A DNA stretch of 64,000 nucleotides from a virus, in IMG/VR virus record IMGVR_UViG_3300025120_000025, positions 38,948 to 102,947 of that record, one strand, 5' to 3'. A program made the translations under genes and the position numbers. The notes under the pieces are model-generated. The model did no database searches and was not told where the DNA came from. It worked only from the letters and a program-made list of their open reading frames with translations. This document shows, piece after piece, positions 4,207 through 18,674 of the stretch (position 1 is the first letter of the stretch; every line of letters starts with the position of its first letter).

Positions 4207-5679
4207 ATGAAAAGCAAAAGAGTATGTGTACTAGGTGCTGGTAACGCAGGATTAATGGCGGCACTTATATTGAAAATAGAACGACCAGGACTTGATGTTT
4301 ATGTTGTAGGTTCATCAGAAATAGGTATCGTAGGTGTTGGCGAAAGTAGCACAGAACACGTTAATTATTTTAGAGACTTACTTGGCGTATCAGTTCAAGA
4401 TTTTGTCACAGAAAGTGGTTGTACCTTTAAGTATGGTGTAGACTTTCAAGGTTGGACCGATAAGAGATATATTCACTCTCTTACTGCGAATGACGATGGT
4501 ATTCGTACAGACCCTTATCACACCGAACCAGAAGAATTATTCATGTATACAAACATGAGTGCGAATTGCGATCCATTAGATTTAGTTCAACCTACACAAT
4601 TAAACTATGAAGTTTCTGAAACAGATAATTTTCCTAATCAGTTTCACTTTGACACACAGAAGTTTAATAAATTTCTTCATACACAGATAAAAAAACGTGG
4701 TATTAGATATTATGATGATATTATTAGTTCAGTAAAGGTAAGTGAATGGGGCGATTGTGAAGCGATTGAAAGTGAAAGTACAAGATATGAGGCAGACATC
4801 TTTGTTGATGCTAGTGGATTTAAAAGAATTATAGCATCAGAAGTGCCTGGTTTTGAATTTCATTCTAGACAAGATGAGATGTTTGTAGATAGTGCATTTG
4901 CATTTCAGTGTCCGCATGATGAACCAGATAACTATCCAGTATTTACTCAAGCACACAAAATGAACTGTGGTTGGATGTGGAGAATACCTACGTCTGAACG
5001 TATGGGTAATGGTTATGCATATAGTTCAAAGCATATCTCATATGAAGATGCAGTCGAAGAAGTAACAGAGAAACTAGGGTTTAGACCAAATGTTGGTAAG
5101 ACTTTCAAATTTGAAGCAGGTAATTATAAAAGAACATGGGTAGGCAATACAGTACTGATTGGTCTATCATCACACTTTTACGAACCTTTAGAAGCAACTG
5201 CAATCGGTGTTGGCATATCACAAGCAAGAGTATTAGCGAACTATATTAATTCGTCTACCATATCTAAAAATACATACAATACAATAATTCAAGATTTATT
5301 TGAACAAGTATTTGCTTTTGTGAGACTACACTATGTAAACTGTCATGCAGATACACCTTTTTGGCAAGATGTATCTAAGTCAATTATACCGCCAGAAGTG
5401 AAAAAATATCTTGACATTACTAGTGAACGTGTGCTATTATTAGAAGATGTTGGAAATATAAGTGGTGCAGTCACCACAGAAAATAGAATATTTGGGGCAC
5501 ATAACTGGAATCAAGTACTGTATGCATTAGGGTTTTTATCAGAAGAAGTTCTTAAAGACCATGTACAAGCATATGGACATATTCCTAGACGTAGAAAATT
5601 TAAAGATTTTGACGATGTGATCCCACATAAACAATTAATTGATAAATGGAACAATAATGAAAATAGCATTAGTAACTGA
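4207..5679 (+). CDS. Flavin-dependent (tryptophan halogenase-like) enzyme
   Basis: GAGNAG, VGVGES, TFKYG (catalytic Lys position), WMWRIP, FYEPLEATAI. Confidence 0.88.
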   Translation: MKSKRVCVLGAGNAGLMAALILKIERPGLDVYVVGSSEIGIVGVGESSTEHVNYFRDLLGVSVQDFVTESGCTFKYGVDFQGWTDKRYIHSLTANDDGIRTDPYHTEPEELFMYTNMSANCDPLDLVQPTQLNYEVSETDNFPNQFHFDTQKFNKFLHTQIKKRGIRYYDDIISSVKVSEWGDCEAIESESTRYEADIFVDASGFKRIIASEVPGFEFHSRQDEMFVDSAFAFQCPHDEPDNYPVFTQAHKMNCGWMWRIPTSERMGNGYAYSSKHISYEDAVEEVTEKLGFRPNVGKTFKFEAGNYKRTWVGNTVLIGLSSHFYEPLEATAIGVGISQARVLANYINSSTISKNTYNTIIQDLFEQVFAFVRLHYVNCHADTPFWQDVSKSIIPPEVKKYLDITSERVLLLEDVGNISGAVTTENRIFGAHNWNQVLYALGFLSEEVLKDHVQAYGHIPRRRKFKDFDDVIPHKQLIDKWNNNENSISN

Positions 5680-6724
5680 TACACACTTTGGAGCAAGAAA
5701 CGATAGCGAAGTCTTTAATAATTATTTCTTTAAGTTTTATGACAATGTTTTCTTTCCATATCTAGAGAAACATAATATCAAAACGTGCATACATCTAGGC
5801 GATATAACAGATAGACGTAAGTTTATAAACTTCAAGACATTACATAAGTTTAGAAAAGATTTTGTATGGCGTCTAGGTAGTATGGGTATAGACACTCATG
5901 TTATTATAGGCAACCACGATACATACTTTAAGAACACAAACGAAGTAAACAGTATGGAAACATTGTTCACATCATTCGATGGTAAGTTAGAACCTTGGAT
6001 TTATACAGAAGCATCTGAAGTAGAATTTGATGGATGTAAGATATTGTTTGTGCCTTGGATATGTGATGATAATCGTGAAAGAACTATGAACACTATTGAT
6101 GAGACTGATGCACAAGTTCTTATGGGTCATTTAGAAGTCAAAGGTTTTACAATGTATCGTGGGTTCACAAACTTTGACCATGGATTAGACAGAAGTATAT
6201 TCAAGAAGTTTGATTGTGCATTTAGTGGTCACTTTCATCATAAATCAACTCAAGACAATATTACATATCTAGGTAATCCATATCAAATGACATGGTCTGA
6301 CTATGGTGATAAACGTGGGTTTCACATATTCGATACAGAAACTAGAGAGATTGAATTTATTGAGAATCCGTATTCTATATTCAAGAAGTTAGAATATAAT
6401 GATAGAGATAAGTCATATGAAGACTTTGATGCAAGTGATTTCAAAGACCATTTTGTAAAGGTGGTAGTAATAAACAAAATCAATGCGAAAATGTTTGACA
6501 AAGTAATAGATAAACTGTATAATGCAGATGTACATGAAATTAATATTATTGAAGATTTTACAGATTTCAATGCTACTTTTGTTGATGATAAGAATTTACA
6601 GTTAGACGATACTTTATCCTTGCTACATAGTTACGTTGATGAAGTTGACACTACTGCGAACAAAGAACGAATAAAAAATGACATGAAACGATTATATGTT
6701 GAAGCGAGTAATCAAACAGTATGA
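5657..6724 (+). CDS. gp47: Recombination endonuclease subunit (Mre11/SbcD-like)
   Basis: DTHFG, GD, GNHD, GHFH metallophosphoesterase motifs. Confidence 0.96.
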   Translation: MKIALVTDTHFGARNDSEVFNNYFFKFYDNVFFPYLEKHNIKTCIHLGDITDRRKFINFKTLHKFRKDFVWRLGSMGIDTHVIIGNHDTYFKNTNEVNSMETLFTSFDGKLEPWIYTEASEVEFDGCKILFVPWICDDNRERTMNTIDETDAQVLMGHLEVKGFTMYRGFTNFDHGLDRSIFKKFDCAFSGHFHHKSTQDNITYLGNPYQMTWSDYGDKRGFHIFDTETREIEFIENPYSIFKKLEYNDRDKSYEDFDASDFKDHFVKVVVINKINAKMFDKVIDKLYNADVHEINIIEDFTDFNATFVDDKNLQLDDTLSLLHSYVDEVDTTANKERIKNDMKRLYVEASNQTV

Positions 6725-8439
6725 TAAAATTTGAATATGTAAGGTGGCGCAATTTTCTATCTACAGGAAATCAATTCACCGAAATTGAAGTATGTAAATC
6801 ACCAACGACACTTGTAGTTGGTTCAAATGGTTCTGGTAAGTCTACATTCATAGATGCTCTATGTTTTGCATTGTTTAATAAACCTTTTCGTAAGATTAAG
6901 ATTGGTCAGTTAATCAATTCAATTAACATGAAAGATGCACTAGTAGAAGTTGAATTCAGTATTGGTTCTTCTCAGTATAAAGTAAGAAGAGGATTAAAAC
7001 CTAATCTGTTTGAAATTTATCAGAACAATATCTTAATTAATCAAGATGCGGCAACGAAAGACTATCAAGAGTTTTTAGAGAAACAGATACTAAAACTAAA
7101 CTATAAGTCTTTCACTCAAATTGTTGTTCTTGGTTCATCGACTTTTATACCCTTTATGCAACTACCAGCACCTCATCGTAGAGAGATTATTGAAGATTTA
7201 CTTGACATTCAAATATTCACACGAATGAATGATATTCTCAAAGGTGAGTTGTTACAAGTTGGTTCAGAGTATAAAGATGCAGAGAGTAAACTGTCGGTTG
7301 TTCGACAGTCAATCGATTTGCAAGAAGACTACTTGGAGCGAATAGATGAGCAACGTAAGAAATCGACAGAGGAAATTAACGAGCGAATTGTCAAGGCGAA
7401 GAACACAATACATGAATACACAGAAGAAGTCTCCGAAAAACAACGAACTATCGCTGAATTACAACGAAGCATTGAAGACGAGGAATCAATTACACGCAGA
7501 AAAAATAAAATAAACTCATTACAAGACCAGATGAAGCGAACACAAAAGAAAGTTGCGAATGATATTACATTCTATAGAGATAATGATGAGTGTAGTACTT
7601 GTAAGCAAGATATTCCTGTATCATTTAAAGAAGATGTAATCAAAGCAAGAACTGCTAAACTACAAGAGATTGAAGTGGCATCTGTTGATTTAGATAGAAA
7701 ATGGGATGATACAAATACTAGATTGAATGAGATACATGAAGTTCAAAAGAAAGTAACTTGGCAACAACAATCTATTAATGATAGACAAGTTCGTATTCAA
7801 GCAGAGAACAGAAGCATTGCAGAATGGAATACAGACATTGAACGTGCGAATGCTATAGCATTAAATGATGAAGAACATCAAAACAAACTTGTTACTATGA
7901 GAGAAGAAGAACGTCAAGTATCTGACACAAAGAATACATTGAACGACAAAAGATATTACTCAGAGATATCAGCAAACTTACTCAAAGATACTGGTATCAA
8001 AACTAAGATTATAAATCAATATCTACCAGTCATCAATCATTATGTAAATCATTTTCTACAAGCACTTGACTTCTTTGTTCAGTTTAATCTTGATGGTTCA
8101 TTCAAAGAAACAATCAAGTCTAGACATAGAGATGATTTTAGTTACGCATCATTCTCTGAAGGCGAGAAGTTGAGAATTGATTTATCACTATTGTTTACTT
8201 GGCGTACTATTGCAAAGATGAAAAATTCAACTAACACAAATCTATTGATACTAGACGAAGTGTTTGATAGTTCATTAGACGCAAATGGTACAGAAGAGTT
8301 TTTAAAAATCCTAAATACTATGGACAAAGGAATCAATGCATTTGTCATATCGCATAAAGGTGACACATTGTTTGACAAGTTTACAAACACAGTTCGTTTT
8401 GCGAAACCAAATAATTATTCTAGAATTGAGGCACAATGA
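6721..8439 (+). CDS. gp46: Recombination endonuclease ATPase (Rad50/SbcC-like)
   Basis: GSNGSGKS, CSTC zinc hook, FSEGE, ILDE. Confidence 0.97.
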   Translation: MIKFEYVRWRNFLSTGNQFTEIEVCKSPTTLVVGSNGSGKSTFIDALCFALFNKPFRKIKIGQLINSINMKDALVEVEFSIGSSQYKVRRGLKPNLFEIYQNNILINQDAATKDYQEFLEKQILKLNYKSFTQIVVLGSSTFIPFMQLPAPHRREIIEDLLDIQIFTRMNDILKGELLQVGSEYKDAESKLSVVRQSIDLQEDYLERIDEQRKKSTEEINERIVKAKNTIHEYTEEVSEKQRTIAELQRSIEDEESITRRKNKINSLQDQMKRTQKKVANDITFYRDNDECSTCKQDIPVSFKEDVIKARTAKLQEIEVASVDLDRKWDDTNTRLNEIHEVQKKVTWQQQSINDRQVRIQAENRSIAEWNTDIERANAIALNDEEHQNKLVTMREEERQVSDTKNTLNDKRYYSEISANLLKDTGIKTKIINQYLPVINHYVNHFLQALDFFVQFNLDGSFKETIKSRHRDDFSYASFSEGEKLRIDLSLLFTWRTIAKMKNSTNTNLLILDEVFDSSLDANGTEEFLKILNTMDKGINAFVISHKGDTLFDKFTNTVRFAKPNNYSRIEAQ

Positions 8440-8993
8440 TACTACCACTAACAAATCCACATGACGTTAAGAACTTAGGCGCACCGCCTGAATTTGATTT
8501 TCTAAACCCTATTGTTGAACCTGTAGAACTTGCAGATAGACTGTGGGAGAACATGAAACACTATAATGGTGTAGGACTATCTGCTACGCAAGTAGGTATT
8601 CATACTAAAGTGTTTGTGATGGGTAGAGATGATTTTCGTATGAATGTTTTTAATCCTAAAGTTATTCAGATATCACCTGAACTACAAGCATTCAAAGAAG
8701 GTTGTTTAACATGGCCATTCTTAATGTTATCAATTAGAAGACCTGTAGATTGCACTATAACATACTACAATGAACACAACGAAGCAAAGAACATCAAACT
8801 ACAAGATATGTCTGCTAGAGTATTCTTACATGAGTATGACCATATGTTAGGCATTGATTTCACACAGAGAGCATCTAAACTAGCACTAGATATTGGTATG
8901 AAGAAAAGAGATAAGATGTTAAAAAAATTGGAGCGATCCGGAAAGTTAGAGAAAGCAGATGGAGACACTTACTCAATACCACAGACTTCCTAA
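8436..8993 (+). CDS. def: Peptide deformylase
   Basis: GVGLSATQVG, EGCL, HEYDH. Confidence 0.93.
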   Translation: MILPLTNPHDVKNLGAPPEFDFLNPIVEPVELADRLWENMKHYNGVGLSATQVGIHTKVFVMGRDDFRMNVFNPKVIQISPELQAFKEGCLTWPFLMLSIRRPVDCTITYYNEHNEAKNIKLQDMSARVFLHEYDHMLGIDFTQRASKLALDIGMKKRDKMLKKLERSGKLEKADGDTYSIPQTS

Positions 8994-9495
8994 AGAAGAC
9001 GAAATCGTATCACAAGGTTTAGAACTGTTTAGTTGGGATACTGCTATTGAAAATTTTGAAGCATCTGTAGCAGAACGAAAAAAGTATTCTGACTTTGTTC
9101 AACGTGGTGTGAGAGTTGTGGGTATTGAGGATGAAGATGATGAAACAAAGTTTAATATGTTACCTACACTTGTTTCTCATCATGCAGAACTAATACCAGT
9201 CGTTCAAGAAATGAGAAAAGTGTTAGAATTTAAACACAATGTCAAAGACCCACATAGAGTTAATTGTCATATGTTTATATCACTGGTATCACACTCACAA
9301 TGCTTTGACTGGCACAGTGATTATGATAACACATACATCTGGCAGATAAAGGGTAGAACAAAATGGTACACTGGTGAAGATGATGCCATACTTGAACCAA
9401 ATGATATGATATATATTCCACACGGAAAGATGCACAGATTAGAAATTATAGAACCAAGAATATCAGTAAGTTTCAGCATTGAGAGAAAGGTATAA
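8959..9495 (+). CDS. JmjC/cupin-type oxygenase
   Basis: FDWHSD, WQIKGRTKW, LEPNDMIYIPHGKMH. Confidence 0.8.
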   Translation: METLTQYHRLPKEDEIVSQGLELFSWDTAIENFEASVAERKKYSDFVQRGVRVVGIEDEDDETKFNMLPTLVSHHAELIPVVQEMRKVLEFKHNVKDPHRVNCHMFISLVSHSQCFDWHSDYDNTYIWQIKGRTKWYTGEDDAILEPNDMIYIPHGKMHRLEIIEPRISVSFSIERKV

Positions 9496-9496
9496 T

Positions 9497-10630
9497 ATGG
9501 AAGAAGCAATGAAAGATTGGCAGAAAGGATATCAGTTAGATTATCTAAAAGAGATTACTGCCGAGTACGATAATTATAATAAATACACCGATAGTCCTTT
9601 TGCACAGTTCAAGAAGAATAACGTAGCAGACTTTTTAGATAAAGGTACTCTACGCAAAGCAGGCGATGCTTGGATTAATATTAAAGAAGCAAAAGTTCGT
9701 TCTAAGATTACGATGCATGGAACTGGACCTATCATCGGTTATAAAGAACCTGGTGATGTTATAATTGAAAATATTTCTCAGTACACAGAGAATGTAAAAA
9801 ACTATATCGGAGCATATTCTAATAGAAGTTGCTGGTTGTTTGGTTGGGCAGAAGATGAAAAGTTTATTCATTTTGCTGAAGATTGTGGGTTTGAGTATGT
9901 TGGTAGTAAAATAACGACATTTGCAGAGATTTATAGCGTATACTATCGTAATTCTAGTATATCCTTCGAGGATCGTTCACACACGCTCATAGACGGCGCT
10001 GAGGCGGTTAACATCAAGAAGTGTACATTTGATAACATCGAAACATCGTTTATCGTCACTGAACTAGAAAATATCCAACAAGAATACACAAATCACTACT
10101 CAAATTACAATAAGAAAGGATCATGGTCAGCAATATCTCTCAGAGGTTACAGACCAGATGCATCTTTTATTGCAAAACCAGTAGAGATGAATAAGAAATG
10201 GAAAGCAGATAACGATACATGGGAAGAATGGCAATGTGAAGATACCCCATTGCGTGAAAAGTTTCCTTATGTAAATGAACTTATTTCGAAGATACCTACT
10301 GATAGGGTCGAACGGATTAGATTTATGTCTCTCGTACCAGGAGGTGGAGAATTGAGTAGACATACTGACCAAGTCGATCCTGACTTAGGTGTTGCAGACG
10401 GAAGAATTATGAGACTACATATTCCAGTAATTACAAATCCTAAGATGGAGTTTACTTCATGGAATATGCATGGTCAGAAACATAATGTAAATATGAAAGA
10501 AGGTGAACTGTGGTACCTCGATATTCGAAAACCACACATGGCAGTGAATAATGGTGATGATATCAGAATTCATTTAGTAGTGGATGTAGAAGCAAATGAT
10601 AAATGCAGACGATTATTTAGCGTTAGTTGA
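9497..10630 (+). CDS. Fusion: possible GNAT-like N-terminus plus Asp/Asn beta-hydroxylase-like domain
   Basis: C-term RIRFMSL.PGG...HTD, RLHIPVITN, HMAVNNG..RIHLVVD; N-term ends WL..AED....AE..GFEYVG (weak GNAT pattern). Confidence 0.7.
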   Translation: MEEAMKDWQKGYQLDYLKEITAEYDNYNKYTDSPFAQFKKNNVADFLDKGTLRKAGDAWINIKEAKVRSKITMHGTGPIIGYKEPGDVIIENISQYTENVKNYIGAYSNRSCWLFGWAEDEKFIHFAEDCGFEYVGSKITTFAEIYSVYYRNSSISFEDRSHTLIDGAEAVNIKKCTFDNIETSFIVTELENIQQEYTNHYSNYNKKGSWSAISLRGYRPDASFIAKPVEMNKKWKADNDTWEEWQCEDTPLREKFPYVNELISKIPTDRVERIRFMSLVPGGGELSRHTDQVDPDLGVADGRIMRLHIPVITNPKMEFTSWNMHGQKHNVNMKEGELWYLDIRKPHMAVNNGDDIRIHLVVDVEANDKCRRLFSVS

Positions 10631-11363
10631 AGATTGGGTCGACCCTTATGATGCACCCGTTATTGAGATGCATGATGACATTCATGTTGTTCGTGACGAT
10701 TTGCTTCCTGCTGGTAGTAAGATTAGGTTCATCGACAAACTCATTAGAGATACCGAATGCGAAGAATGGGTATTTGGAGGAAGCAACAAAGTTGGTTGGG
10801 GTCCTATTTCTTTAGCGTATGTTTGTAAAAAATATAATAAGAATTCAACTTGCTTTTGGGCGGCACGAAAAGAACCAACATGGCATCAAGAAAAATATCT
10901 TGAATACGGAGGTAATATTGAATGGGTGAAGATGGGAATGTTAAATGTTACTCTGTCAAAAGCAGAGCATTATCGCAGAGAGAGTCCGAAGACCCGAAAG
11001 ACGTTGCCTTTAGGACTAGAACACGATTGGGTGCTAGGAAGTATAGTGAAAGTATCGCAGTCGCTACCTCTAGTGCCAGACGTAATATGGACAGTAGGAT
11101 CAAGCGGAACTCTGAACCGAGGGTTGCAACTTGCATTCCCAGAGTCCGAAGTTCATGTGATACAGACGGGTCATAAACTTAGTGAGAGACAGATTGGTAG
11201 AGCAATCTTACATGAAGTACCTTATAAGTTTGATAAACCAGTAAAAGAGGAAGAAGCACCACCTTTTCCTTCTGCGCCTGAATATGATGCGAAAGCATGG
11301 AAAGTGATAAAAGAAAATATGAACAATAGTAAAACTAATTTATTTTGGAATGTAGCGGCATGA
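10596..11363 (+). CDS. PLP-dependent enzyme, fold type II (ACC deaminase/Cys synthase-like)
   Basis: VVRDDLLPAGSKIR (PLP Lys), VGSSGT phosphate loop, YDAKAW, LFWNV. Confidence 0.82.
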   Translation: MINADDYLALVEDWVDPYDAPVIEMHDDIHVVRDDLLPAGSKIRFIDKLIRDTECEEWVFGGSNKVGWGPISLAYVCKKYNKNSTCFWAARKEPTWHQEKYLEYGGNIEWVKMGMLNVTLSKAEHYRRESPKTRKTLPLGLEHDWVLGSIVKVSQSLPLVPDVIWTVGSSGTLNRGLQLAFPESEVHVIQTGHKLSERQIGRAILHEVPYKFDKPVKEEEAPPFPSAPEYDAKAWKVIKENMNNSKTNLFWNVAA

Positions 11364-11908
11364 GAAAGCAAATCGATTATGTAGATGATTTGTTTACTGA
11401 TGAGTTTATTCAAGAAGTATCAACTAAGTATCATACAAATTTATTTGAATATGGCAACGTATCTAATAATCCTAATGATGCAATCTTTTGGTCATCTAGA
11501 CGTTTGAATGATAATTCACCGATTACAGATTGTTGGCATCAAAAGAAAATACTTGATGTTATATCTGACTATTATAAATTTAAAACTTTCAAAGTAGACA
11601 ATCAAAATATCTATATCAATGGTCAGACATATAAGTTAGATGGTTCAATGCATATCGATAGTGGTCATAGAACTGATCCTGATGCACACATGACAATCTT
11701 GTATATGGTAAACTGGCAAGATGCAGGCATACAAGGTTTTGAAACAAATATGGGTATTGTTCCATTCAAGGCAGGTAGAGTTGTGATTTTCAACTCAATA
11801 ATGTCACATAGAGGACTATCTACTGAAAGCGTGAATAATCTAAGAATGACATTAACTTGGAAAAGTTGCGAAATAGTACTTGACAAAACTAGTCCTTTAG
11901 TGTTATAA
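11360..11908 (+). CDS. 2OG-Fe(II) oxygenase
   Basis: HID...T.LYM...GRVVIFNS..SH...R. Confidence 0.8.
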   Translation: MRKQIDYVDDLFTDEFIQEVSTKYHTNLFEYGNVSNNPNDAIFWSSRRLNDNSPITDCWHQKKILDVISDYYKFKTFKVDNQNIYINGQTYKLDGSMHIDSGHRTDPDAHMTILYMVNWQDAGIQGFETNMGIVPFKAGRVVIFNSIMSHRGLSTESVNNLRMTLTWKSCEIVLDKTSPLVL

Positions 11909-11909
11909 T
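11880..11909 (+). promoter_or_regulatory. Sigma70-like promoter
   Basis: TTGACA-N18-TATAAT with TGn extension. Confidence 0.6.
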
Positions 11910-12135
11910 GAAAACTTATATACACGTTAATCAACATAAGATTAGAGCAAACAAAAAACATGGTACCAATGAACCTGTCATCACTATCAAAAAAGGTAGA
12001 ACGAACACATATTGTCATGCAGTTAAAATACATGGCGACAGTGTAGTGAGATATGGTGGTAGCGAAAAACCTATTCTCTCTTGCGGTGCAAGAGTAGTAA
12101 TAGAAACTGACAATGAAGTAGAGGTTATTGAATGA
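11908..12135 (+). CDS. Hypothetical phage protein
   Basis: IHVNQH.I..N.K, LSCGARV; translationally coupled. Confidence 0.7.
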   Translation: MKTYIHVNQHKIRANKKHGTNEPVITIKKGRTNTYCHAVKIHGDSVVRYGGSEKPILSCGARVVIETDNEVEVIE

Positions 12136-13688
12136 AGCATTTTTACGAGAGAAATAGTTATCTATTAGAACACGAAGTCAATAAGACATTCGAAGAAGTT
12201 CTATGGATGTCCGATGAAGATTTTAGAACATGGTTGCGTGATATGCGTAGAGAAGTCGTTTATTCATGGGATACTCTCGGTCTACCCCCTAGAGTTGGTT
12301 GGTCAGAAGATAAGATTATTGACCAGTTTAATAAGATGTCTAGTTTCAACGTAAAAGACTTTGAATGCTTTAATGAAGAAACTAATGACACAGATGTTAT
12401 TAGAAATACTAGTGTTATAGGTAATGCCGCCAATCAGTTCTTTCCTACAATGATGAAGACTAAGATTGTGTATAATGATATAAGTAAAGCAAAGAGCATC
12501 TACGACCATTTTGTAGACGAAGACTTATTTCAAAAGGTATACACATATGGACATAGACATTTCAAGAGAGATAGTTTTTATCACTATTCTAATCCTGTCA
12601 AGTTGGATGATGTACTAGATTTCGAAAATCAAAAGTACAAAGTAAAATCTGGCGTAGACTTTATTAACTGGTTTGAGAAAGTAGGAAGACAATACGATAC
12701 ACACGACTATTGGTTGAAACCTGATAAAGAAGAAGAGTATACAGGTTATGATGATAAACTTAGAGGTGTTAATTGGGCATCTTTAACTAGAGAAGAAATT
12801 GAGAAATTAGATATTCCTGAGAACTGTAAAGTAAACATGAAAGATGATATGAATGTATATCAAATTATGTTTTTTAAAAAAGGTCAAAAGATTTTTCCTC
12901 TAGGTTTCAAACCATTTCGTATTTCATGGTGTCAATATGCCGTGAACTTTCCACCATTAACTGCAAAGTATCTCTATGAAAAATATACCGAACACTTTAA
13001 AGAACAGTCTACTATTCGTATTTGGGATCCTAGTGCTGGTTGGGGTGGTCGTATTCTCGGTGCTATGTCTGTTCGTGATGACCGCTCTATACATTATATT
13101 GGTACTGATCCCAACACTGACCACACTGTTGTATTGGAAGATGGTACCAAATCAACAAAGTATGAAGAACTAGCGAGATTTTTCAATGAAAAAACATACA
13201 GAGGCAACGGACTCTTCCCACACACAAACACATACGAGATACATCAAGTCGGTTCAGAGACCTTTGAGTGTGAGGAAAACTCTCTCGACATGGTATTCAC
13301 TTCCCCACCATATTTCGCCAAAGAGGCGTACAGTGATGACGAAGAACAATCATACAAGAAGTTCGACCAATACGAAACGTGGGTAGAAGGTTTTCTGAGA
13401 CCTACATTAGAGAATGCTTACAAGTATCTTAAAAGCGACAGATACTTGCTCTGGAACATTGCTGATGCTAAATTTGGTAACACTATGCTTCCACTAGAAT
13501 CCGATAGCATAAATATATGTAAGAACCTAGGGTTTGAATATGTGACTATGTTGAAAATGGCACTTGCTCAAATGCCTGGCGGTAATAGAGTAGATGAGGA
13601 GACAGGTAAACCACGAGCAAAGAATTTTTGTAAAGTGAATGGTATCTGGTTAAAATATGAACCAATCTTTGTTTTTAGAAAGTCGTAA
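12132..13688 (+). CDS. Amino-methyltransferase-fold DNA modification enzyme (SPPY, m4C/m6A type)
   Basis: WDPSAGWGGR motif I, FTSPPY motif IV. Confidence 0.85.
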   Translation: MKHFYERNSYLLEHEVNKTFEEVLWMSDEDFRTWLRDMRREVVYSWDTLGLPPRVGWSEDKIIDQFNKMSSFNVKDFECFNEETNDTDVIRNTSVIGNAANQFFPTMMKTKIVYNDISKAKSIYDHFVDEDLFQKVYTYGHRHFKRDSFYHYSNPVKLDDVLDFENQKYKVKSGVDFINWFEKVGRQYDTHDYWLKPDKEEEYTGYDDKLRGVNWASLTREEIEKLDIPENCKVNMKDDMNVYQIMFFKKGQKIFPLGFKPFRISWCQYAVNFPPLTAKYLYEKYTEHFKEQSTIRIWDPSAGWGGRILGAMSVRDDRSIHYIGTDPNTDHTVVLEDGTKSTKYEELARFFNEKTYRGNGLFPHTNTYEIHQVGSETFECEENSLDMVFTSPPYFAKEAYSDDEEQSYKKFDQYETWVEGFLRPTLENAYKYLKSDRYLLWNIADAKFGNTMLPLESDSINICKNLGFEYVTMLKMALAQMPGGNRVDEETGKPRAKNFCKVNGIWLKYEPIFVFRKS

Positions 13689-14337
13689 TCTTTTTGTAAA
13701 CCCTCCAGTTGATTTTGAAGATTGGGGTAATTTCGATTATGATAAAGCGTTTGGCATTGACAAGTATTGTTACAATGCATACAGGCACTTTATCTTACCT
13801 TATCTAACAGACCCAACTAATCAAACTATTGTTGATATTAACACCGGTAAAGGTTGTGGTATCGCTGGACTCAAGAGAGAGTTTGGTTTTAAAAAGTGTA
13901 TCGGATTTACAGGTTCAACTCAATTACTACATCACTGCAAAGATATATGGAATGAAAAAGGTCTATCATTCTATAAAGACTTCATCTTGTCTAAGCAAGG
14001 TAAAGCAGACTTTCTATTTTCATATGAAGCATTCGAAGATTATGATAATAAGAGTGCATTACTACTTAGACTATCACAAGCACTAAATGAAGACGGAATT
14101 TTAGTTATCATACAATCAACTTTCAATGATTATGAATATCACAGTTATGAGAATATTCTAGAGAATGTACATGGACTTAAAAAATTATCATCTCAAGATA
14201 TATCTGCCCATGTACTACAAGGAATCAAACAATTTGAACACCACAACGATGGTTCGATGTCTATTATGCATTCAAGATTTAGTAAAAACTTAACGAGACA
14301 TGAGTATAAAATTATGGCAAGTGTATTTCAGAGATGA
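13657..14337 (+). CDS. Divergent SAM-dependent methyltransferase-like protein
   Basis: IVDINTGKG motif I variant, ADFLFS, LNEDGILVI. Confidence 0.6.
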   Translation: MNQSLFLESRNLFVNPPVDFEDWGNFDYDKAFGIDKYCYNAYRHFILPYLTDPTNQTIVDINTGKGCGIAGLKREFGFKKCIGFTGSTQLLHHCKDIWNEKGLSFYKDFILSKQGKADFLFSYEAFEDYDNKSALLLRLSQALNEDGILVIIQSTFNDYEYHSYENILENVHGLKKLSSQDISAHVLQGIKQFEHHNDGSMSIMHSRFSKNLTRHEYKIMASVFQR

Positions 14338-14840
14338 CAACAGTTTCAGTATTTGAAAATTTTCTATCATACGATGATTTATTTAATGTGAAAGAACTAT
14401 CGAATGAAATCTATTATAGTCCAGACGCTTGTAAAAGTACTAATGCTGGTTGGACTAAAGCAGTAATAGGTAATAGTTTTCCTGTTGTTTGTTGTAAGAT
14501 AGAAGATGAAAAGTTATTAGAAGTTCTACAGAAAAAGATAGATGAAACTGCAAATGAGTATGAGATAAAATCTGCAAGTTTTTTCTATTGGACAGAATTC
14601 AGTTATATACCTTGGCACGATGATGCAGGTCACGATGCGGCAATGACAATATACTTATCCGACCACGATGAAAATGATGGTGGATATTTCATGTATAAAA
14701 GACAAGAAGAGATTGTAGCAATACCACCAGTAATGAATAGAGCAATACTTCAAGTAGAAGGCGTACCACATTCGACCACTGCATTGAATTCTAGGTCACC
14801 TATACGAAAAACAATTCAAATATTTCTTCAAAAAAAGTAA
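14334..14840 (+). CDS. 2OG-Fe(II) oxygenase (prolyl hydroxylase-like)
   Basis: IPWHDD, TIYL, GGYF, PH.T, RKTIQ. Confidence 0.85.
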   Translation: MTTVSVFENFLSYDDLFNVKELSNEIYYSPDACKSTNAGWTKAVIGNSFPVVCCKIEDEKLLEVLQKKIDETANEYEIKSASFFYWTEFSYIPWHDDAGHDAAMTIYLSDHDENDGGYFMYKRQEEIVAIPPVMNRAILQVEGVPHSTTALNSRSPIRKTIQIFLQKK

Positions 14841-14849
14841 AAATAGTAC

Positions 14850-14878
14850 TTGACATACTAAATAGTTTATGGTATAGT
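14850..14878 (+). promoter_or_regulatory. Sigma70-like promoter
   Basis: TTGACA-N17-TATAGT. Confidence 0.7.
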
Positions 14879-14884
14879 TTACCT

Positions 14885-15028
14885 ATGATGATATTTAAAA
14901 GTATTTGGTTCGGACTAACTCTTCCCTTTAGACTGATTTATTGGTTGATTTGTTGTATTTTTGCAACATATTTTATGATTTTCAGTTTATTTTGCATTAT
15001 TGCCATAATTAGTGTGGTTTTCGCTTGA
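14885..15028 (+). CDS. 47-aa hydrophobic membrane peptide (not in ORF track)
   Basis: Hand translation MMIFKSIWFGLTLPFRLIYWLICCIFATYFMIFSLFCIIAIISVVFA*; ATG 7 nt after -10 box. Confidence 0.5.
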   Translation: MMIFKSIWFGLTLPFRLIYWLICCIFATYFMIFSLFCIIAIISVVFA

Positions 15029-15053
15029 CATATACATTAAAATATGCGATAAT
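15025..15053 (+). promoter_or_regulatory. Early promoter of cobT-like gene
   Basis: TTGACA-N17-GATAAT with TGn extension. Confidence 0.7.
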
Positions 15054-15083
15054 GTTTACATGATGATGAGAAAAGAGGTTGAT

Positions 15084-17396
15084 GTGAAAAACAATGTTAA
15101 AGAAATAAAGTCAGTACTAGCAAAATTACTTGCCACTGAAAATCTATCTGTAGAATTCGCTAATGTCGAGACTGCAAGTTTCGATGTTGAAAAACGTATT
15201 TTGCGTATTCCTACAATGAAAGATATCAGTGATGAAGTATTAGACTTGTTTGTTGGTCACGAAGTTTCTCACGCACTATACACTCCAATAGAGGGTCTAG
15301 AAAAACTCGCTGACAAACCTAAGAATTTTCACTCTTTTGTAAACGTAGTCGAAGATGTTCGTATTGAGCGACTAATTCAAAAGAAGTATCCTGGTCTGAG
15401 AAAACCTTTCTTTAATGCCTATGCTAAGTTGAAAGCAGATAACTTTTTCAAACTTGATGGTATGAATGTTGCTGACCTTCTTCTTATCGACAGAATGAAT
15501 GTTAAAGCAAAACTCGGTACACAAATCGATATTCCTTTCGATAGTGTAGAAGAAGAGTTTATGACCAGAGCAAAAACTACTGAGACTTTCGATGAAGTCT
15601 TTGCTCTTGCTGAAGAACTTTATGAGTATTGTCAAGATGAGTTAGAGAAAAAAAAGCAAGATGATCCTGAGCAAGTCGACCAGTATTTGACTTCAATGCC
15701 AATGTCTGGTGAGAATGAGAACGAAGAAGATTTTCAAGAACAAGACACTGCACAGTCTGATGACAATCAAGAAGAGACTGGTAGTGAGAGTGAGCAATCA
15801 AAACCTGATACTGAAGAAGATGAAAATTCAAAAGAAGGTACAGATGTTCGTTCAAATGCTACTGAAAAGAGTGATGATGAAGGTGATGAAGGTGCAGAGA
15901 CAAAACCTGTTCCAAAATCAAACATGACCGAAGACATTGCGAAAACAGAAGGTCTTACTCCTGGTGCGAAATCACTAACTGACCTTGCTACTCAACAATC
16001 TACTAAAGATATGGTTGAGACTGACACTAACAAGCAAGTTCGTTATTTTGATGTTCCTAAAGTTCTTAAAATCAATGACTACATTGTTCCTTTTCAAGAG
16101 ATTAAAAAGAAACTTTATGACCATTGGAATGTTACTCCTGGTTCAAAAAATGAGACAACTCTTTCTAAGAATGTAAAAGAATTCAAGAAAGAAAATGAAA
16201 AAGTTATCAACTATTTGCATAAAGAATTCGAAATGAAAAAGCAGGCAGATAGATATGCGAGAGCGACTACTGCCAGAACTGGTGTTCTGAATGTAAATAA
16301 GTTACACTCATACAAGTATAATGATGATATCTTCCTAAAGAAAAATATTATTCCTAATGGTAAAGACCACGGTATGGTTTTCTTTCTTGACTGGTCTGGT
16401 TCAATGGCAGATAATATGCATGGTACTATGCAACAGTTGATTAACCTTGCACTCTTTTGTAAGAAGGCGCAAATTCCTTTCGCCGCTTATGGGTTCTCTT
16501 CTGAGTATGCTAAGAACAACCTTTCACAAGAAGCAAAAATGATGCGTCAATCAAGAAATATGCACGAAGCAAACATTGAAAATATTTCTCTTCTTGAATT
16601 GTTCAGTGAGAAAATGACTTCAAAAGAATTCAATGATGCTCTCGGTGTTGCTAATGCAATCGGTTCTATGTACGATAGAAAAAGCAGAGGCGACTATGCA
16701 TGGTGGGGTCTTCCTCGTGATATGTATCTTGGTGGTACACCTCTTAATCATTGTATCGTACTTGCTACTAGATTAATAAAAGAATTCAAGCAAAGAAATA
16801 ATGTGCAGATTGTTAGTACATCATTTTTAACTGATGGTTCAAGTCACTCTATCGATGGCGTTGTTGGTTATCAAAAAGACCGTGACGATGTTTCCCGAAT
16901 GAGACATAATGATGATACTTATCGTCAAGCAGGTACTTTGATCCTGCGAGATGGTCAAAATCAAGTTGCTATCAAAAACAATAGTAAATGGTCAAGTGTC
17001 GATAGTAATGATATTACAAAAGGTTTGTACAAGTTGCTGAAAATATCAACTGGTGCTAATACAACTGGTTTCTTTGTCGCTGGTCGTAATGAAATTCGTT
17101 ATGCTTGGTCACTGTACTTTGCAGATTGGACTAATAGAGATGATGATATGGCAGTCAGTTTTGACCACTGGAAAAAAGTCTTAACAAGAGATAATGCTAC
17201 CACTTCTACAAAGTCTGGTCTTGATGAACTGTACATAATCAAAGGTGGTAAAGCACTTGAGGTTGTAGATGAAGGTCTTGGTGATGATATGAATGGTGCT
17301 TCAAAGCAAAAACTAACTACCGCATTCAAGAGAATGGGTCGTGGTAAACTAAAGAATAGGGTAATCCTACAAAAGTTTATCGAAAATATAGCATAA
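15084..17396 (+). CDS. CobT-like protein: HExxH domain, acidic linker, VWA domain
   Basis: HEVSH..EDVRIE, DWSGS MIDAS, GGTP, LTDG; GTG start after GAGG. Confidence 0.88.
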   Translation: MKNNVKEIKSVLAKLLATENLSVEFANVETASFDVEKRILRIPTMKDISDEVLDLFVGHEVSHALYTPIEGLEKLADKPKNFHSFVNVVEDVRIERLIQKKYPGLRKPFFNAYAKLKADNFFKLDGMNVADLLLIDRMNVKAKLGTQIDIPFDSVEEEFMTRAKTTETFDEVFALAEELYEYCQDELEKKKQDDPEQVDQYLTSMPMSGENENEEDFQEQDTAQSDDNQEETGSESEQSKPDTEEDENSKEGTDVRSNATEKSDDEGDEGAETKPVPKSNMTEDIAKTEGLTPGAKSLTDLATQQSTKDMVETDTNKQVRYFDVPKVLKINDYIVPFQEIKKKLYDHWNVTPGSKNETTLSKNVKEFKKENEKVINYLHKEFEMKKQADRYARATTARTGVLNVNKLHSYKYNDDIFLKKNIIPNGKDHGMVFFLDWSGSMADNMHGTMQQLINLALFCKKAQIPFAAYGFSSEYAKNNLSQEAKMMRQSRNMHEANIENISLLELFSEKMTSKEFNDALGVANAIGSMYDRKSRGDYAWWGLPRDMYLGGTPLNHCIVLATRLIKEFKQRNNVQIVSTSFLTDGSSHSIDGVVGYQKDRDDVSRMRHNDDTYRQAGTLILRDGQNQVAIKNNSKWSSVDSNDITKGLYKLLKISTGANTTGFFVAGRNEIRYAWSLYFADWTNRDDDMAVSFDHWKKVLTRDNATTSTKSGLDELYIIKGGKALEVVDEGLGDDMNGASKQKLTTAFKRMGRGKLKNRVILQKFIENIA

Positions 17397-17442
17397 AAAT
17401 GAAAAAAAATGCATTATTTGCCATAAAAAGTGAAAATAGTGC

Positions 17443-17472
17443 TTGACAAACTACTAAGAATAATGCTATAAT
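17443..17472 (+). promoter_or_regulatory. Early promoter of cobS-like gene
   Basis: TTGACA-N18-TATAAT with TGn extension. Confidence 0.75.
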
Positions 17473-17501
17473 AAATTATAATGATGAGAAAAGGTGATAA
17501 T

Positions 17502-18674
17502 ATGATGAATAAACGTGATGACTATATTGCGAAAGCAAAAGAACTGTTCAATGGTAAGAATGATTTTACCAGAGCAGAATTGGTTACTGTAGCAAATGAG
17601 ATGGGTATGAAATATGCTCCGTCTTGGATTGTTAAAAATGACGAGTACAAAATAGGTAACGGTTTGTATTCACTAATTGGTGGCAGTGTAATGCCTGAAA
17701 CAAAGGTTGATGCAGTAATGCAAAACATTCAAGTTCCAGAACAACCACAAGCGAAAAAAACTATCGCAGTGAGTGATACTACTATTCACAACTTGATTCC
17801 TCAAGTCTATGCGAACTATGTTCCTTTTGGTCAGTTCCAAGATGTTCGAAGCATCATTCGTTCTAAAATGTTCTACCCTATTTTCTGCACTGGTCTATCA
17901 GGTAATGGTAAGACCATGATGTTCGAACAAGTGTGTGCAATGCTCAAAAGAGAATTCTTTAGAGTTAACATTACTATCGAAACCGATGAAGATGATTTAC
18001 TCGGTGGGTATAGACTTGTCGATGGTGAGACTGTCTGGTATGATGGTCCAGTTATCCAAGCAATGAAAGCAGGCGGTGTTCTGCTTCTAGATGAGATTGA
18101 CCTTGCATCAAACAAGATTATGTGTTTGCAACCAATCCTAGAAGGCGGTGGTGTTCTTCTCAAGAAGATTAACCAGTTCGTAGAACCAACACCTGGTTTT
18201 CAGATTGTAGCAACTGCCAATACTAAAGGTAAGGGTTCAGAAGATGGTCGTTTCATCGGCACTAACATTCTGAACGAGGCGTTCCTTGAAAGGTTCCCTA
18301 TTACAATCGAACAAGATTATCCTGCAGTCGCTATTGAGAAAAAGATTGTCTCAAAAGAACTGATTGCAGTCGATAAAGAAGATGAGGACTTTGCTGATAA
18401 ACTTGTCAAGTGGGCAGATATTATCAGAAAGACTTTCCTCGATGGAGGAATCGATGAGTTGATTGCAACTCGTAGACTAGTCCACATCGTTAAAGCATAT
18501 TCCGTCTTTGGTGACAGAATGAAAGCGATACAAATGTGTATCAATCGTTTTGACGATGAAACAAAATCAGCGTTCATCGACCTTTACACAAAGGTAGATG
18601 CTGATGCAGTCAATACTGATTTCGGTGAAAGTGAAGTTGCACCAAAAGAAGATGTTGACAAAACACCGTTTTAA
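17502..18674 (+). CDS. cobS: CobS/MoxR-like AAA+ ATPase
   Basis: GLSGNGKT, LLLDEID, ATANTKG, NEAFLERF. Confidence 0.92.
   Translation: MMNKRDDYIAKAKELFNGKNDFTRAELVTVANEMGMKYAPSWIVKNDEYKIGNGLYSLIGGSVMPETKVDAVMQNIQVPEQPQAKKTIAVSDTTIHNLIPQVYANYVPFGQFQDVRSIIRSKMFYPIFCTGLSGNGKTMMFEQVCAMLKREFFRVNITIETDEDDLLGGYRLVDGETVWYDGPVIQAMKAGGVLLLDEIDLASNKIMCLQPILEGGGVLLKKINQFVEPTPGFQIVATANTKGKGSEDGRFIGTNILNEAFLERFPITIEQDYPAVAIEKKIVSKELIAVDKEDEDFADKLVKWADIIRKTFLDGGIDELIATRRLVHIVKAYSVFGDRMKAIQMCINRFDDETKSAFIDLYTKVDADAVNTDFGESEVAPKEDVDKTPF

Follow-up and report, generated by a model that had tools for sequence, protein, structure and literature searches.

Is the run of genes at positions 8959-14840 of the viral DNA analysed here a pathway for an undescribed DNA base and, if so, which of its genes take part? 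The 64,000 nucleotides (nt) studied, hereafter the window, belong to the IMG/VR viral contig IMGVR_UViG_3300025120_000025 (102,947 bp, estimated to be 57% complete, G+C about 35%). The preliminary description had noted abutting or overlapping genes for a cupin, a beta-hydroxylase, a fold-type-II pyridoxal 5'-phosphate (PLP) enzyme, 2-oxoglutarate (2OG) oxygenases, an amino-methyltransferase with an SPPY motif and a second methyltransferase. We indeed find an unbroken plus-strand run of eight genes and a 75-amino-acid (aa) open reading frame (ORF), in which neighbours abut or overlap by 1-35 nt. Proteins were annotated by Pfam, PHROG and NCBIfam scans; the Pfam and PHROG results, together with a structural model of the PLP enzyme, agree with the folds named in that description. 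Three of the genes are the main subject of this report:

9479-10630, plus strand: AspH383, 383 aa, likelier start codon ATG at 9497; N-terminal domain (N-domain, residues ~1-190) followed by a PF05118 domain (194-371)
10596-11363, plus strand: PLP255, 255 aa; compact fold-type-II PLP enzyme of the M6 gp52/phrog_7093 family, a predicted decarboxylase of a base-tethered alpha-amino acid
12132-13688, plus strand: MT518, 518 aa; N-domain of ~258 aa followed by a gamma-order class I amino-methyltransferase

We consider it rather probable that AspH383, PLP255 and MT518 constitute one methyltransferase-led module, which would act on the replicated DNA of the phage itself and hypermodify one of its bases.

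A conserved three-gene core

A scan of IMG/VR recovered 160 full-length relatives of MT518, and 80 loci of these were compared by running every gene of the window against them with tblastn; dereplication at 95% left 35 informative clusters. In the 80 loci, whose MT518 homologs are 53-97% identical to the window copy, the PLP gene is present in 60 and the AspH gene in 57, between gp46 and cobT, and the order AspH, PLP, methyltransferase is always kept, down to ~53% MT518 identity. The dereplicated relatives comprise 24 with all three genes, three with the hydroxylase and the methyltransferase and eight with the methyltransferase alone, whilst the PLP gene is the sole partner in none; AspH383 is therefore counted in 27 of the 35. 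Across these clusters, all chosen by their MT518 homolog, the PLP gene never occurs without a methyltransferase. The conserved core thus consists of AspH383, PLP255 and MT518, set in an insertion slot between gp46 and cobT that is otherwise hypervariable.

In other phages, unrelated genes occupy the positions around the trio; they code for a dCMP deaminase, ClpP, a sugar epimerase, a 3'-phosphoadenosine-5'-phosphosulfate (PAPS) reductase or a TET/JBP oxygenase. The dCMP deaminase gene (PF00383) lies directly upstream of the MT518 homolog at L050:7537-8001 and in about 35 other loci, and a ClpP-like gene takes its position in phages that have MT518 only (L068:7400-8050). One relative without a PLP gene encodes, directly after its MT518 homolog, a 454-aa TET/JBP oxygenase (L051:4854-6218; PF12851, 95 bits), another DNA-base-modifying enzyme in the same slot.

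Fusions of the PLP enzyme with methyltransferases

Longer relatives of PLP255 were also collected, and 46 fused proteins were found among them. Their architectures include the following:

P0121 (1084 aa): methyltransferase (N6_N4_Mtase), N-domain with Asp_Arg_Hydrox, and PALP; the whole trio in one chain
P0132 (1148 aa, nr name Nitrosomonas nitrosa): methyltransferase, N-domain with Asp_Arg_Hydrox, and PALP; again the whole trio in one chain
P0137: methyltransferase followed by PALP
P0145, P0147 and P0156: ParB-type DNA methyltransferase, with PALP inserted between the S-adenosylmethionine (SAM)-binding motifs I-II and motif IV (CPPY in P0145)
Erythrobacter phage vB_EliS_R6L gp1: ParB-type DNA methyltransferase with inserted PALP; matches ParB PHROGs, phrog_498 and phrog_7093
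P0165 and P0166: PLP255-like region (without a Pfam PALP match) and a PCIF1-type (PF12237) adenine-N6 methyltransferase domain

In Microcystis phage Mae-JY30 the PALP gene lies directly 3' of a methyltransferase gene. Unrelated phages thus couple the PLP enzyme to methyltransferases of three lineages, a recurrence that synteny alone cannot explain. Taken together, the conserved linkage and the single-protein fusions support, at the level of sequence, a functional coupling of the methyltransferase fold, the PLP enzyme and the beta-hydroxylase. Moreover, the two-domain fusions leave the decarboxylase-type domain with no catalytic partner other than a methyltransferase, so that the tethered amino acid would have to come from SAM.

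The ParB-methyltransferase-PALP protein P0147 (1129 aa) is itself interrupted by an intein with Hint_2 and LAGLIDADG_3 homing endonuclease domains. A gene with a PAPS-reductase domain stands between the PLP and methyltransferase genes at L020:7255-8004, and another (gp7 of Erythrobacter phage R6L; L095) is only a few genes away from that phage's ParB-MTase-PALP fusion; the PAPS-reductase gene may be a recurring fourth partner.

The PLP enzyme and its DNA-modifying homolog

PLP255 itself has no Pfam match, although PALP is matched by 10 of 20 members of its family, and comparison with the PDB, by single sequence as well as by profile, returned nothing significant. Its AlphaFold model (predicted local distance difference test score, pLDDT, 90.6) identifies it as a fold-type-II PLP enzyme, with D-cysteine desulfhydrase and ACC deaminase as the top Foldseek matches and threonine deaminase matched as well (hits include 4d99, 4d8t and 1j0a; E values down to 6e-11).

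More informative is the relation to gp52 of Pseudomonas phage M6. Both proteins are matched by phrog_7093 (PLP255 with E 1.3e-34, M6 gp52 with E 2e-159), and they align with each other both by BLASTP (E 6e-12, residues 29-254 against 18-277, 24% identity) and by hhalign (probability 97.5, E 5e-12). K42 of PLP255 is aligned with K36 of M6 gp52, which has been proposed as the Schiff-base lysine (PMC8989533); K42 and the phosphate loop S169-S170-G171 are invariant in 20 homologs, and a C-terminal signature, PFPxxPxYDxKAW...FWN, is common to PLP255 and M6 gp52. Judged by these alignments, PLP255 is an end-to-end homolog of M6 gp52. The latter and ViI gp226 have been purified and shown to decarboxylate C-alpha-glycinyl-thymidine and O-seryl-thymidine in DNA in vitro (Lee et al., NAR 2021, PMC8989533).

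The PLP255 family is almost wholly viral: 1795 proteins were found at E<=1e-5, nearly all from uncultured aquatic phages. A search of 185,579 species genomes recovered only four loci of the family, all in metagenome-assembled genomes (MAGs), on short contigs or on one long contig of phage size; they are possibly viral DNA that was binned into MAGs.

The hydroxylase fusion

The C-terminal domain of AspH383 (residues 194-371) belongs to Asp_Arg_Hydrox (PF05118; 56.3 bits against a cut-off of 22.6), a family matched by all 18 aligned homologs. Residues H295, D297, H353, H365 and R363 are invariant among the homologs, so that the HxD...H metal triad is kept. Among solved structures, the PDB profile search places L-proline cis-4-hydroxylase (4p7w, E 1.4e-10) closest to the catalytic domain.

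The preliminary description had called the N-domain GNAT-like and derived an acylation step from this, for which we found no solid basis. The best PDB profile match of the domain, an N-acetyltransferase, has an E value of 0.31 and covers 37 residues only; the Atlas leads to GNAT are weak (scores 0.88 and 0.79), and no GNAT Pfam family was matched in 18 homologs even at E 10. The same description had looked to a linkage of PLP, GNAT and methyltransferase genes in other phages: the linkage is real for AspH, PLP and methyltransferase genes in the 24 dereplicated relatives mentioned above, whereas the GNAT identity of the AspH383 N-domain is not confirmed.

The only match of AspH383 in a cultured phage is gp4 of Mycobacterium phage LilMcDreamy (H43; NC_051582 2965-3687), with 30% identity over residues 119-366, which span part of the N-domain and the hydroxylase.

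The amino-methyltransferase and its likely substrate

The C-terminal half of MT518 is matched by Pfam N6_N4_Mtase (PF01555; 31.8 bits, cut-off 26.7) and also by phrog_12517, phrog_498 and phrog_67 'DNA methyltransferase'. It contains motif I (DPSAGWGGR, residues 299-307), motif II (YIGTDPN) and motif IV (TSPPY, 390-394), and DPSxGWGGR and TSPPYF are invariant across 23 homologs. The N-domain of ~258 aa is conserved and belongs to no recognised family; a VIA-wide structure comparison gave no match information for it. No full-length MT518 was found in cultured phages, and the C-terminal half alone has matches in Bacteroides, Staphylococcus and Vibrio phages. The model of the protein (pLDDT 86.6) has a class I methyltransferase fold. 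Foldseek returned generic class I methyltransferases and nothing more specific, and the top VIA matches are, by a small margin, the exocyclic-amine methyltransferases Trm11, TrmN and Trm14 (N2-methylguanosine in tRNA), with Z scores of 15-16.

These matches raise the question of whether the target might be not DNA but RNA (a tRNA or an rRNA) or some protein of the translation machinery. Such a target would suit the best structural matches, which besides the three tRNA enzymes include METTL5 (N6-methyladenosine in rRNA), TrmM and PrmC, and also the name 'TrmN6' that databases have automatically given to relatives, the neighbouring genes for a peptide deformylase and for a ribosomal-oxygenase-type cupin (JmjC_2), and the PCIF1-type domain of P0165, PCIF1 being an mRNA-cap methyltransferase. 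However, the Z scores of RNA and other methyltransferases are only 2-3 units apart, and the fold match therefore does not discriminate between them; the deformylase and the cupin are not conserved with the trio, and the 64-kb window contains no tRNA gene. Further points in favour of DNA are the ParB DNA-binding domains of relatives, the matches of the methyltransferase moiety to PF01555 and 'DNA methyltransferase' PHROGs, and the activity on DNA of the PLP enzyme's homolog. We therefore regard a target in RNA or in the translation apparatus as quite improbable. DNA is the likeliest substrate, as suggested by the homology to M6 gp52 and by the PLP domain inside ParB-type DNA methyltransferases.

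Among MT518 homologs, the residues after motif IV (SAxKF versus SYKKF) were considered as a marker of methyltransferases with and without partners, and rejected: L016 and L077 keep SYKKF, and the motif does not track partner loss. A predicted complex of MT518 with PLP255, SAM and PLP scored 0.00 in a run made without controls, which speaks neither for nor against binding.

Relation to known hypermodification pathways

The module appears to lie outside the thymidine pathway, since genes for aGPT-Pplase2, the 5-hydroxymethyl-2'-deoxyuridine (5-hmdU) kinase or a ThyA-like enzyme were not found in the contig or in related records. M6 gp51 (aGPT-Pplase2), M6 gp54 (5-hmdU kinase) and ThyA/hydroxymethylase PF00303 had no match in the 103-kb contig, nor in five related records, which include the trio-bearing G001 (150,107 bp, terminal repeats, 100% complete); the PF00303 search was positive in 10 control genomes, and the single-protein queries with M6 gp51 and gp54 have a limited reach. 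With these queries, the absence of a 5-hydroxymethyluracil kinase and of an aGPT gene, noted in the preliminary description for the window, extends to the whole contig.

PLP255 resembles M6 gp52 in its compact fold-II PLP architecture, the aligned lysine proposed for the Schiff base, the C-terminal signature and phrog_7093 membership, but differs from M6 gp52 and ViI gp226 in its partners. In M6 and ViI the decarboxylase is paired with a 5-hmdU DNA kinase and the amino-acid:DNA transferase aGPT-Pplase2, whereas the partners of PLP255, encoded separately or in one chain with it, are an amino-methyltransferase and a beta-hydroxylase. With the thymidine hypermodifications of M6, ViI, PaMx11, SP10 and PhiW-14 the module would share the modification of a base after replication, within the DNA polymer, and an appended amino acid sculpted by a PLP enzyme, presumably against restriction. 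The site would be different, probably an exocyclic amine in place of the C5-hydroxymethyl group of uracil, and so would the installer, which here has a SAM-dependent methyltransferase fold. The genes that define the thymidine pathways (dUMP hydroxymethylase, 5-HMUDK and aGPT-Pplase) were not found here, and an Fe/2OG hydroxylase would take part.

Wybutosine synthesis on tRNA offers a second comparison. There, Tyw2, a SAM aminocarboxypropyl transferase, has a methyltransferase fold, and Tyw5 is a JmjC hydroxylase of the 3-amino-3-carboxypropyl (acp) side chain; we know of no PLP step in that pathway. The resemblance is a working analogy only, in that a methyltransferase fold would pass the amino-acid part of SAM on to a base and an Fe/2OG oxygenase would hydroxylate the resulting side chain, and the substrate there is tRNA.

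A further comparison is with the ParB-methyltransferases of phage packaging loci: PF01555, phrog_498 and phrog_12517 are common to MT518 and the methyltransferase moiety of R6L gp1; MT518, however, lacks a ParB domain, has its own 258-aa N-domain and has its PLP partner encoded by a separate gene. No description of a methyltransferase-PLP-hydroxylase DNA module was found in the literature, although one may have been predicted earlier.

A possible reaction sequence

The following scheme would account for the three enzymes. MT518 would bind DNA and SAM and hold the exocyclic amine of a flipped base (N4 of cytosine, N6 of adenine or N2 of guanine) in its SPPY pocket, where it would install, instead of or besides a methyl, a group that bears an alpha-amino acid. 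The most economical candidate for this group, by analogy with Tyw2 on tRNA, is the 3-amino-3-carboxypropyl end of SAM. AspH383 would then hydroxylate a methylene of the side chain, probably before decarboxylation, and PLP255 could form a Schiff base with the alpha-amine and remove the carboxylate, as M6 gp52 does. The outcome would be a cationic group of the (hydroxy)aminopropyl type that may shield the DNA from host nucleases.

Aminocarboxypropyl transfer is the simplest scheme because an enzyme of the gp52 type needs a base-tethered alpha-amino acid, and SAM is an alpha-amino acid with an activated gamma-carbon. The preliminary description had similarly suggested a larger SAM-derived group, and we infer that its addition, followed by decarboxylation and hydroxylation, is the most economical chemistry. 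In its full form, the proposal is that a DNA methyltransferase fold was recruited for aminocarboxypropyl transfer to the amine of a DNA base, and that Fe/2OG hydroxylation and PLP decarboxylation on the polymer then give a cationic hydroxy-aminopropyl base, an undescribed purine or cytosine hypermodification in a large group of uncultured marine and freshwater T4-like phages. This detailed version is tentative, and we think it possible but doubtful. DNA as the substrate, the transferred group, the order of the steps and the product are all our inference.

An ordinary methyltransferase with helpers?

Several observations weigh against a three-enzyme hypermodification module. Eight of the 35 informative relatives have MT518 alone and three more lack the PLP gene, which argues that MT518 works without partners and may simply methylate. 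Synteny between related T4-like phages may account for some of the shared position of the trio. In its SAM-binding and catalytic motifs MT518 looks like an ordinary N6/N4 methyltransferase, with no sequence sign of non-methyl transfer, and its best structural matches (Trm11, TrmN, Trm14, METTL5) are amino-methyltransferases of tRNA and rRNA, not DNA enzymes. Finally, PLP255 and M6 gp52 are just 24% identical, and as the reactions of fold-II PLP enzymes are diverse, PLP255 need not be a decarboxylase.

MT518 could accordingly be an orphan DNA methyltransferase of the ordinary kind, methylating N6 of adenine or N4 of cytosine to protect the phage DNA, with PLP255 and AspH383 as helpers or as separate metabolic enzymes (acting on SAM, S-adenosylhomocysteine or a free amino acid) whose genes are adjacent or fused for the sake of co-expression. 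The partnerless relatives and the canonical motifs fit this well, MT518 may have a consensus promoter of its own (11880-11909), and the nearest solved relatives of AspH383 act on free proline. On the other hand, mere co-expression does not sit easily with a PLP domain that is inserted within the methyltransferase domain in ParB-type fusions and fused to three lineages of amino-methyltransferases. The only characterised homolog of PLP255 acts on amino acids tethered to DNA, the PLP gene was never seen without a methyltransferase in the loci examined, which were all picked by their MT518 homolog, and the family is essentially absent from cellular genomes. On balance we consider an orphan methyltransferase with helpers unlikely, if still deserving some weight, and favour the methyltransferase-led hypermodification module.

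Accessory genes and genomic surroundings

The remaining genes of the run, all variable accessories of the core, and a candidate promoter are as follows:

8959-9495, plus strand: JmjC/cupin-type oxygenase, 178 aa; JmjC_2 29.4 bits (cut-off 22), Cupin_2, phrog_4992
11345-11908, plus strand: oxyA187, small 2OG-Fe(II) oxygenase, 187 aa, between PLP255 and MT518; 2OG-FeII_Oxy_3 20.9 bits (below the cut-off of 27), phrog_274 E 9e-18
11880-11909, plus strand: candidate sigma-70-type promoter (TTGACA, 18 nt, TG-TATAAT), a 12/12 consensus match only, in the 3' end of oxyA187 and just before the 75-aa ORF and MT518
11908-12135, plus strand: s75, the 75-aa ORF; phrog_8676 E 8e-21
13657-14337, plus strand: MT226, small-molecule-type class I methyltransferase, 226 aa; Methyltransf_23 27.3 bits (cut-off 27)
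14334-14840, plus strand: oxyB168, small 2OG-Fe(II) oxygenase, 168 aa; 2OG-FeII_Oxy_3 23 bits (below the cut-off of 27), phrog_274 E 1e-9

The best PDB match of MT226 is a sterol C-methyltransferase (E 1e-3). Whether the eight or nine genes of 8959-14840 all serve a single long pathway, in which the cupin, the small oxygenases and MT226 tailor the same base, can be judged from their distribution. The genes all lie on the same strand with overlapping or abutting ends, oxyA187 and the 75-aa ORF are located between PLP255 and MT518 in this lineage, and the close relatives L005 and L047 keep the full set. Beyond such relatives, however, the set dissolves: among the 80 loci oxyA187 was found in 14, the cupin and MT226 in 11 each, s75 in six and oxyB168 in four, always with an MT518 at least 64% identical to the window copy and mostly at least 85%, and the same slots are occupied by unrelated genes in other phages. 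In addition, cyanophages have arrays of phrog_274-type oxygenases and MINA-type cupins, which have been interpreted there as modifiers of peptides or metabolites (PMC2938197). A single pathway of all these genes has, in our view, little probability, and the module can probably do without the other five genes. What stands of the hypermodification cluster in the preliminary description is thus the coupling of methyltransferase, PLP enzyme and hydroxylase, with DNA as the likeliest substrate; the union of all eight genes in one pathway does not, with the five extras confined to close relatives.

The backbone of the phage is T4-like, with gp47 (5639-6724) and gp46 (6721-8439) upstream of the cluster; gp46 is ~47% identical to cyanomyovirus gp46. 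A megablast search with 8400-15000 against 50,697 phage records matched no cultured relative. The peptide deformylase gene at 8436-8993 (PF01327, 105 bits) shares 35 nt with the cupin gene and is present in 35 of the 80 related loci, where it is not tied to the trio. Downstream, a second near-consensus sigma-70 site (14850-14878) precedes a cobT-like gene, the first of a pair at 15012-18674 that consists of a 794-aa phrog_459 'peptidase'/cobT-like gene without a Pfam match and a cobS/MoxR-type AAA gene (PF07728 AAA_5, CbbQ_C). This pair is part of the backbone of the phage group.

Implications

To our knowledge, every phage pathway elucidated so far that puts an amino-acid-derived side chain on DNA starts from a 5-hydroxymethyl-pyrimidine. 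If the module acts as proposed, a methyltransferase-fold, SAM-based route would be a second, independent way to complex bases, probably on the amines of adenine, cytosine or guanine, and would extend the range of reactions that the methyltransferase fold is known to perform on DNA. As the family is abundant, with 1795 relatives of PLP255 and 160 full-length relatives of MT518, such a base could be common in natural viral DNA; in that case it would bear on restriction evasion, on sequencing bias in viromes and on enzyme tools for DNA labelling.

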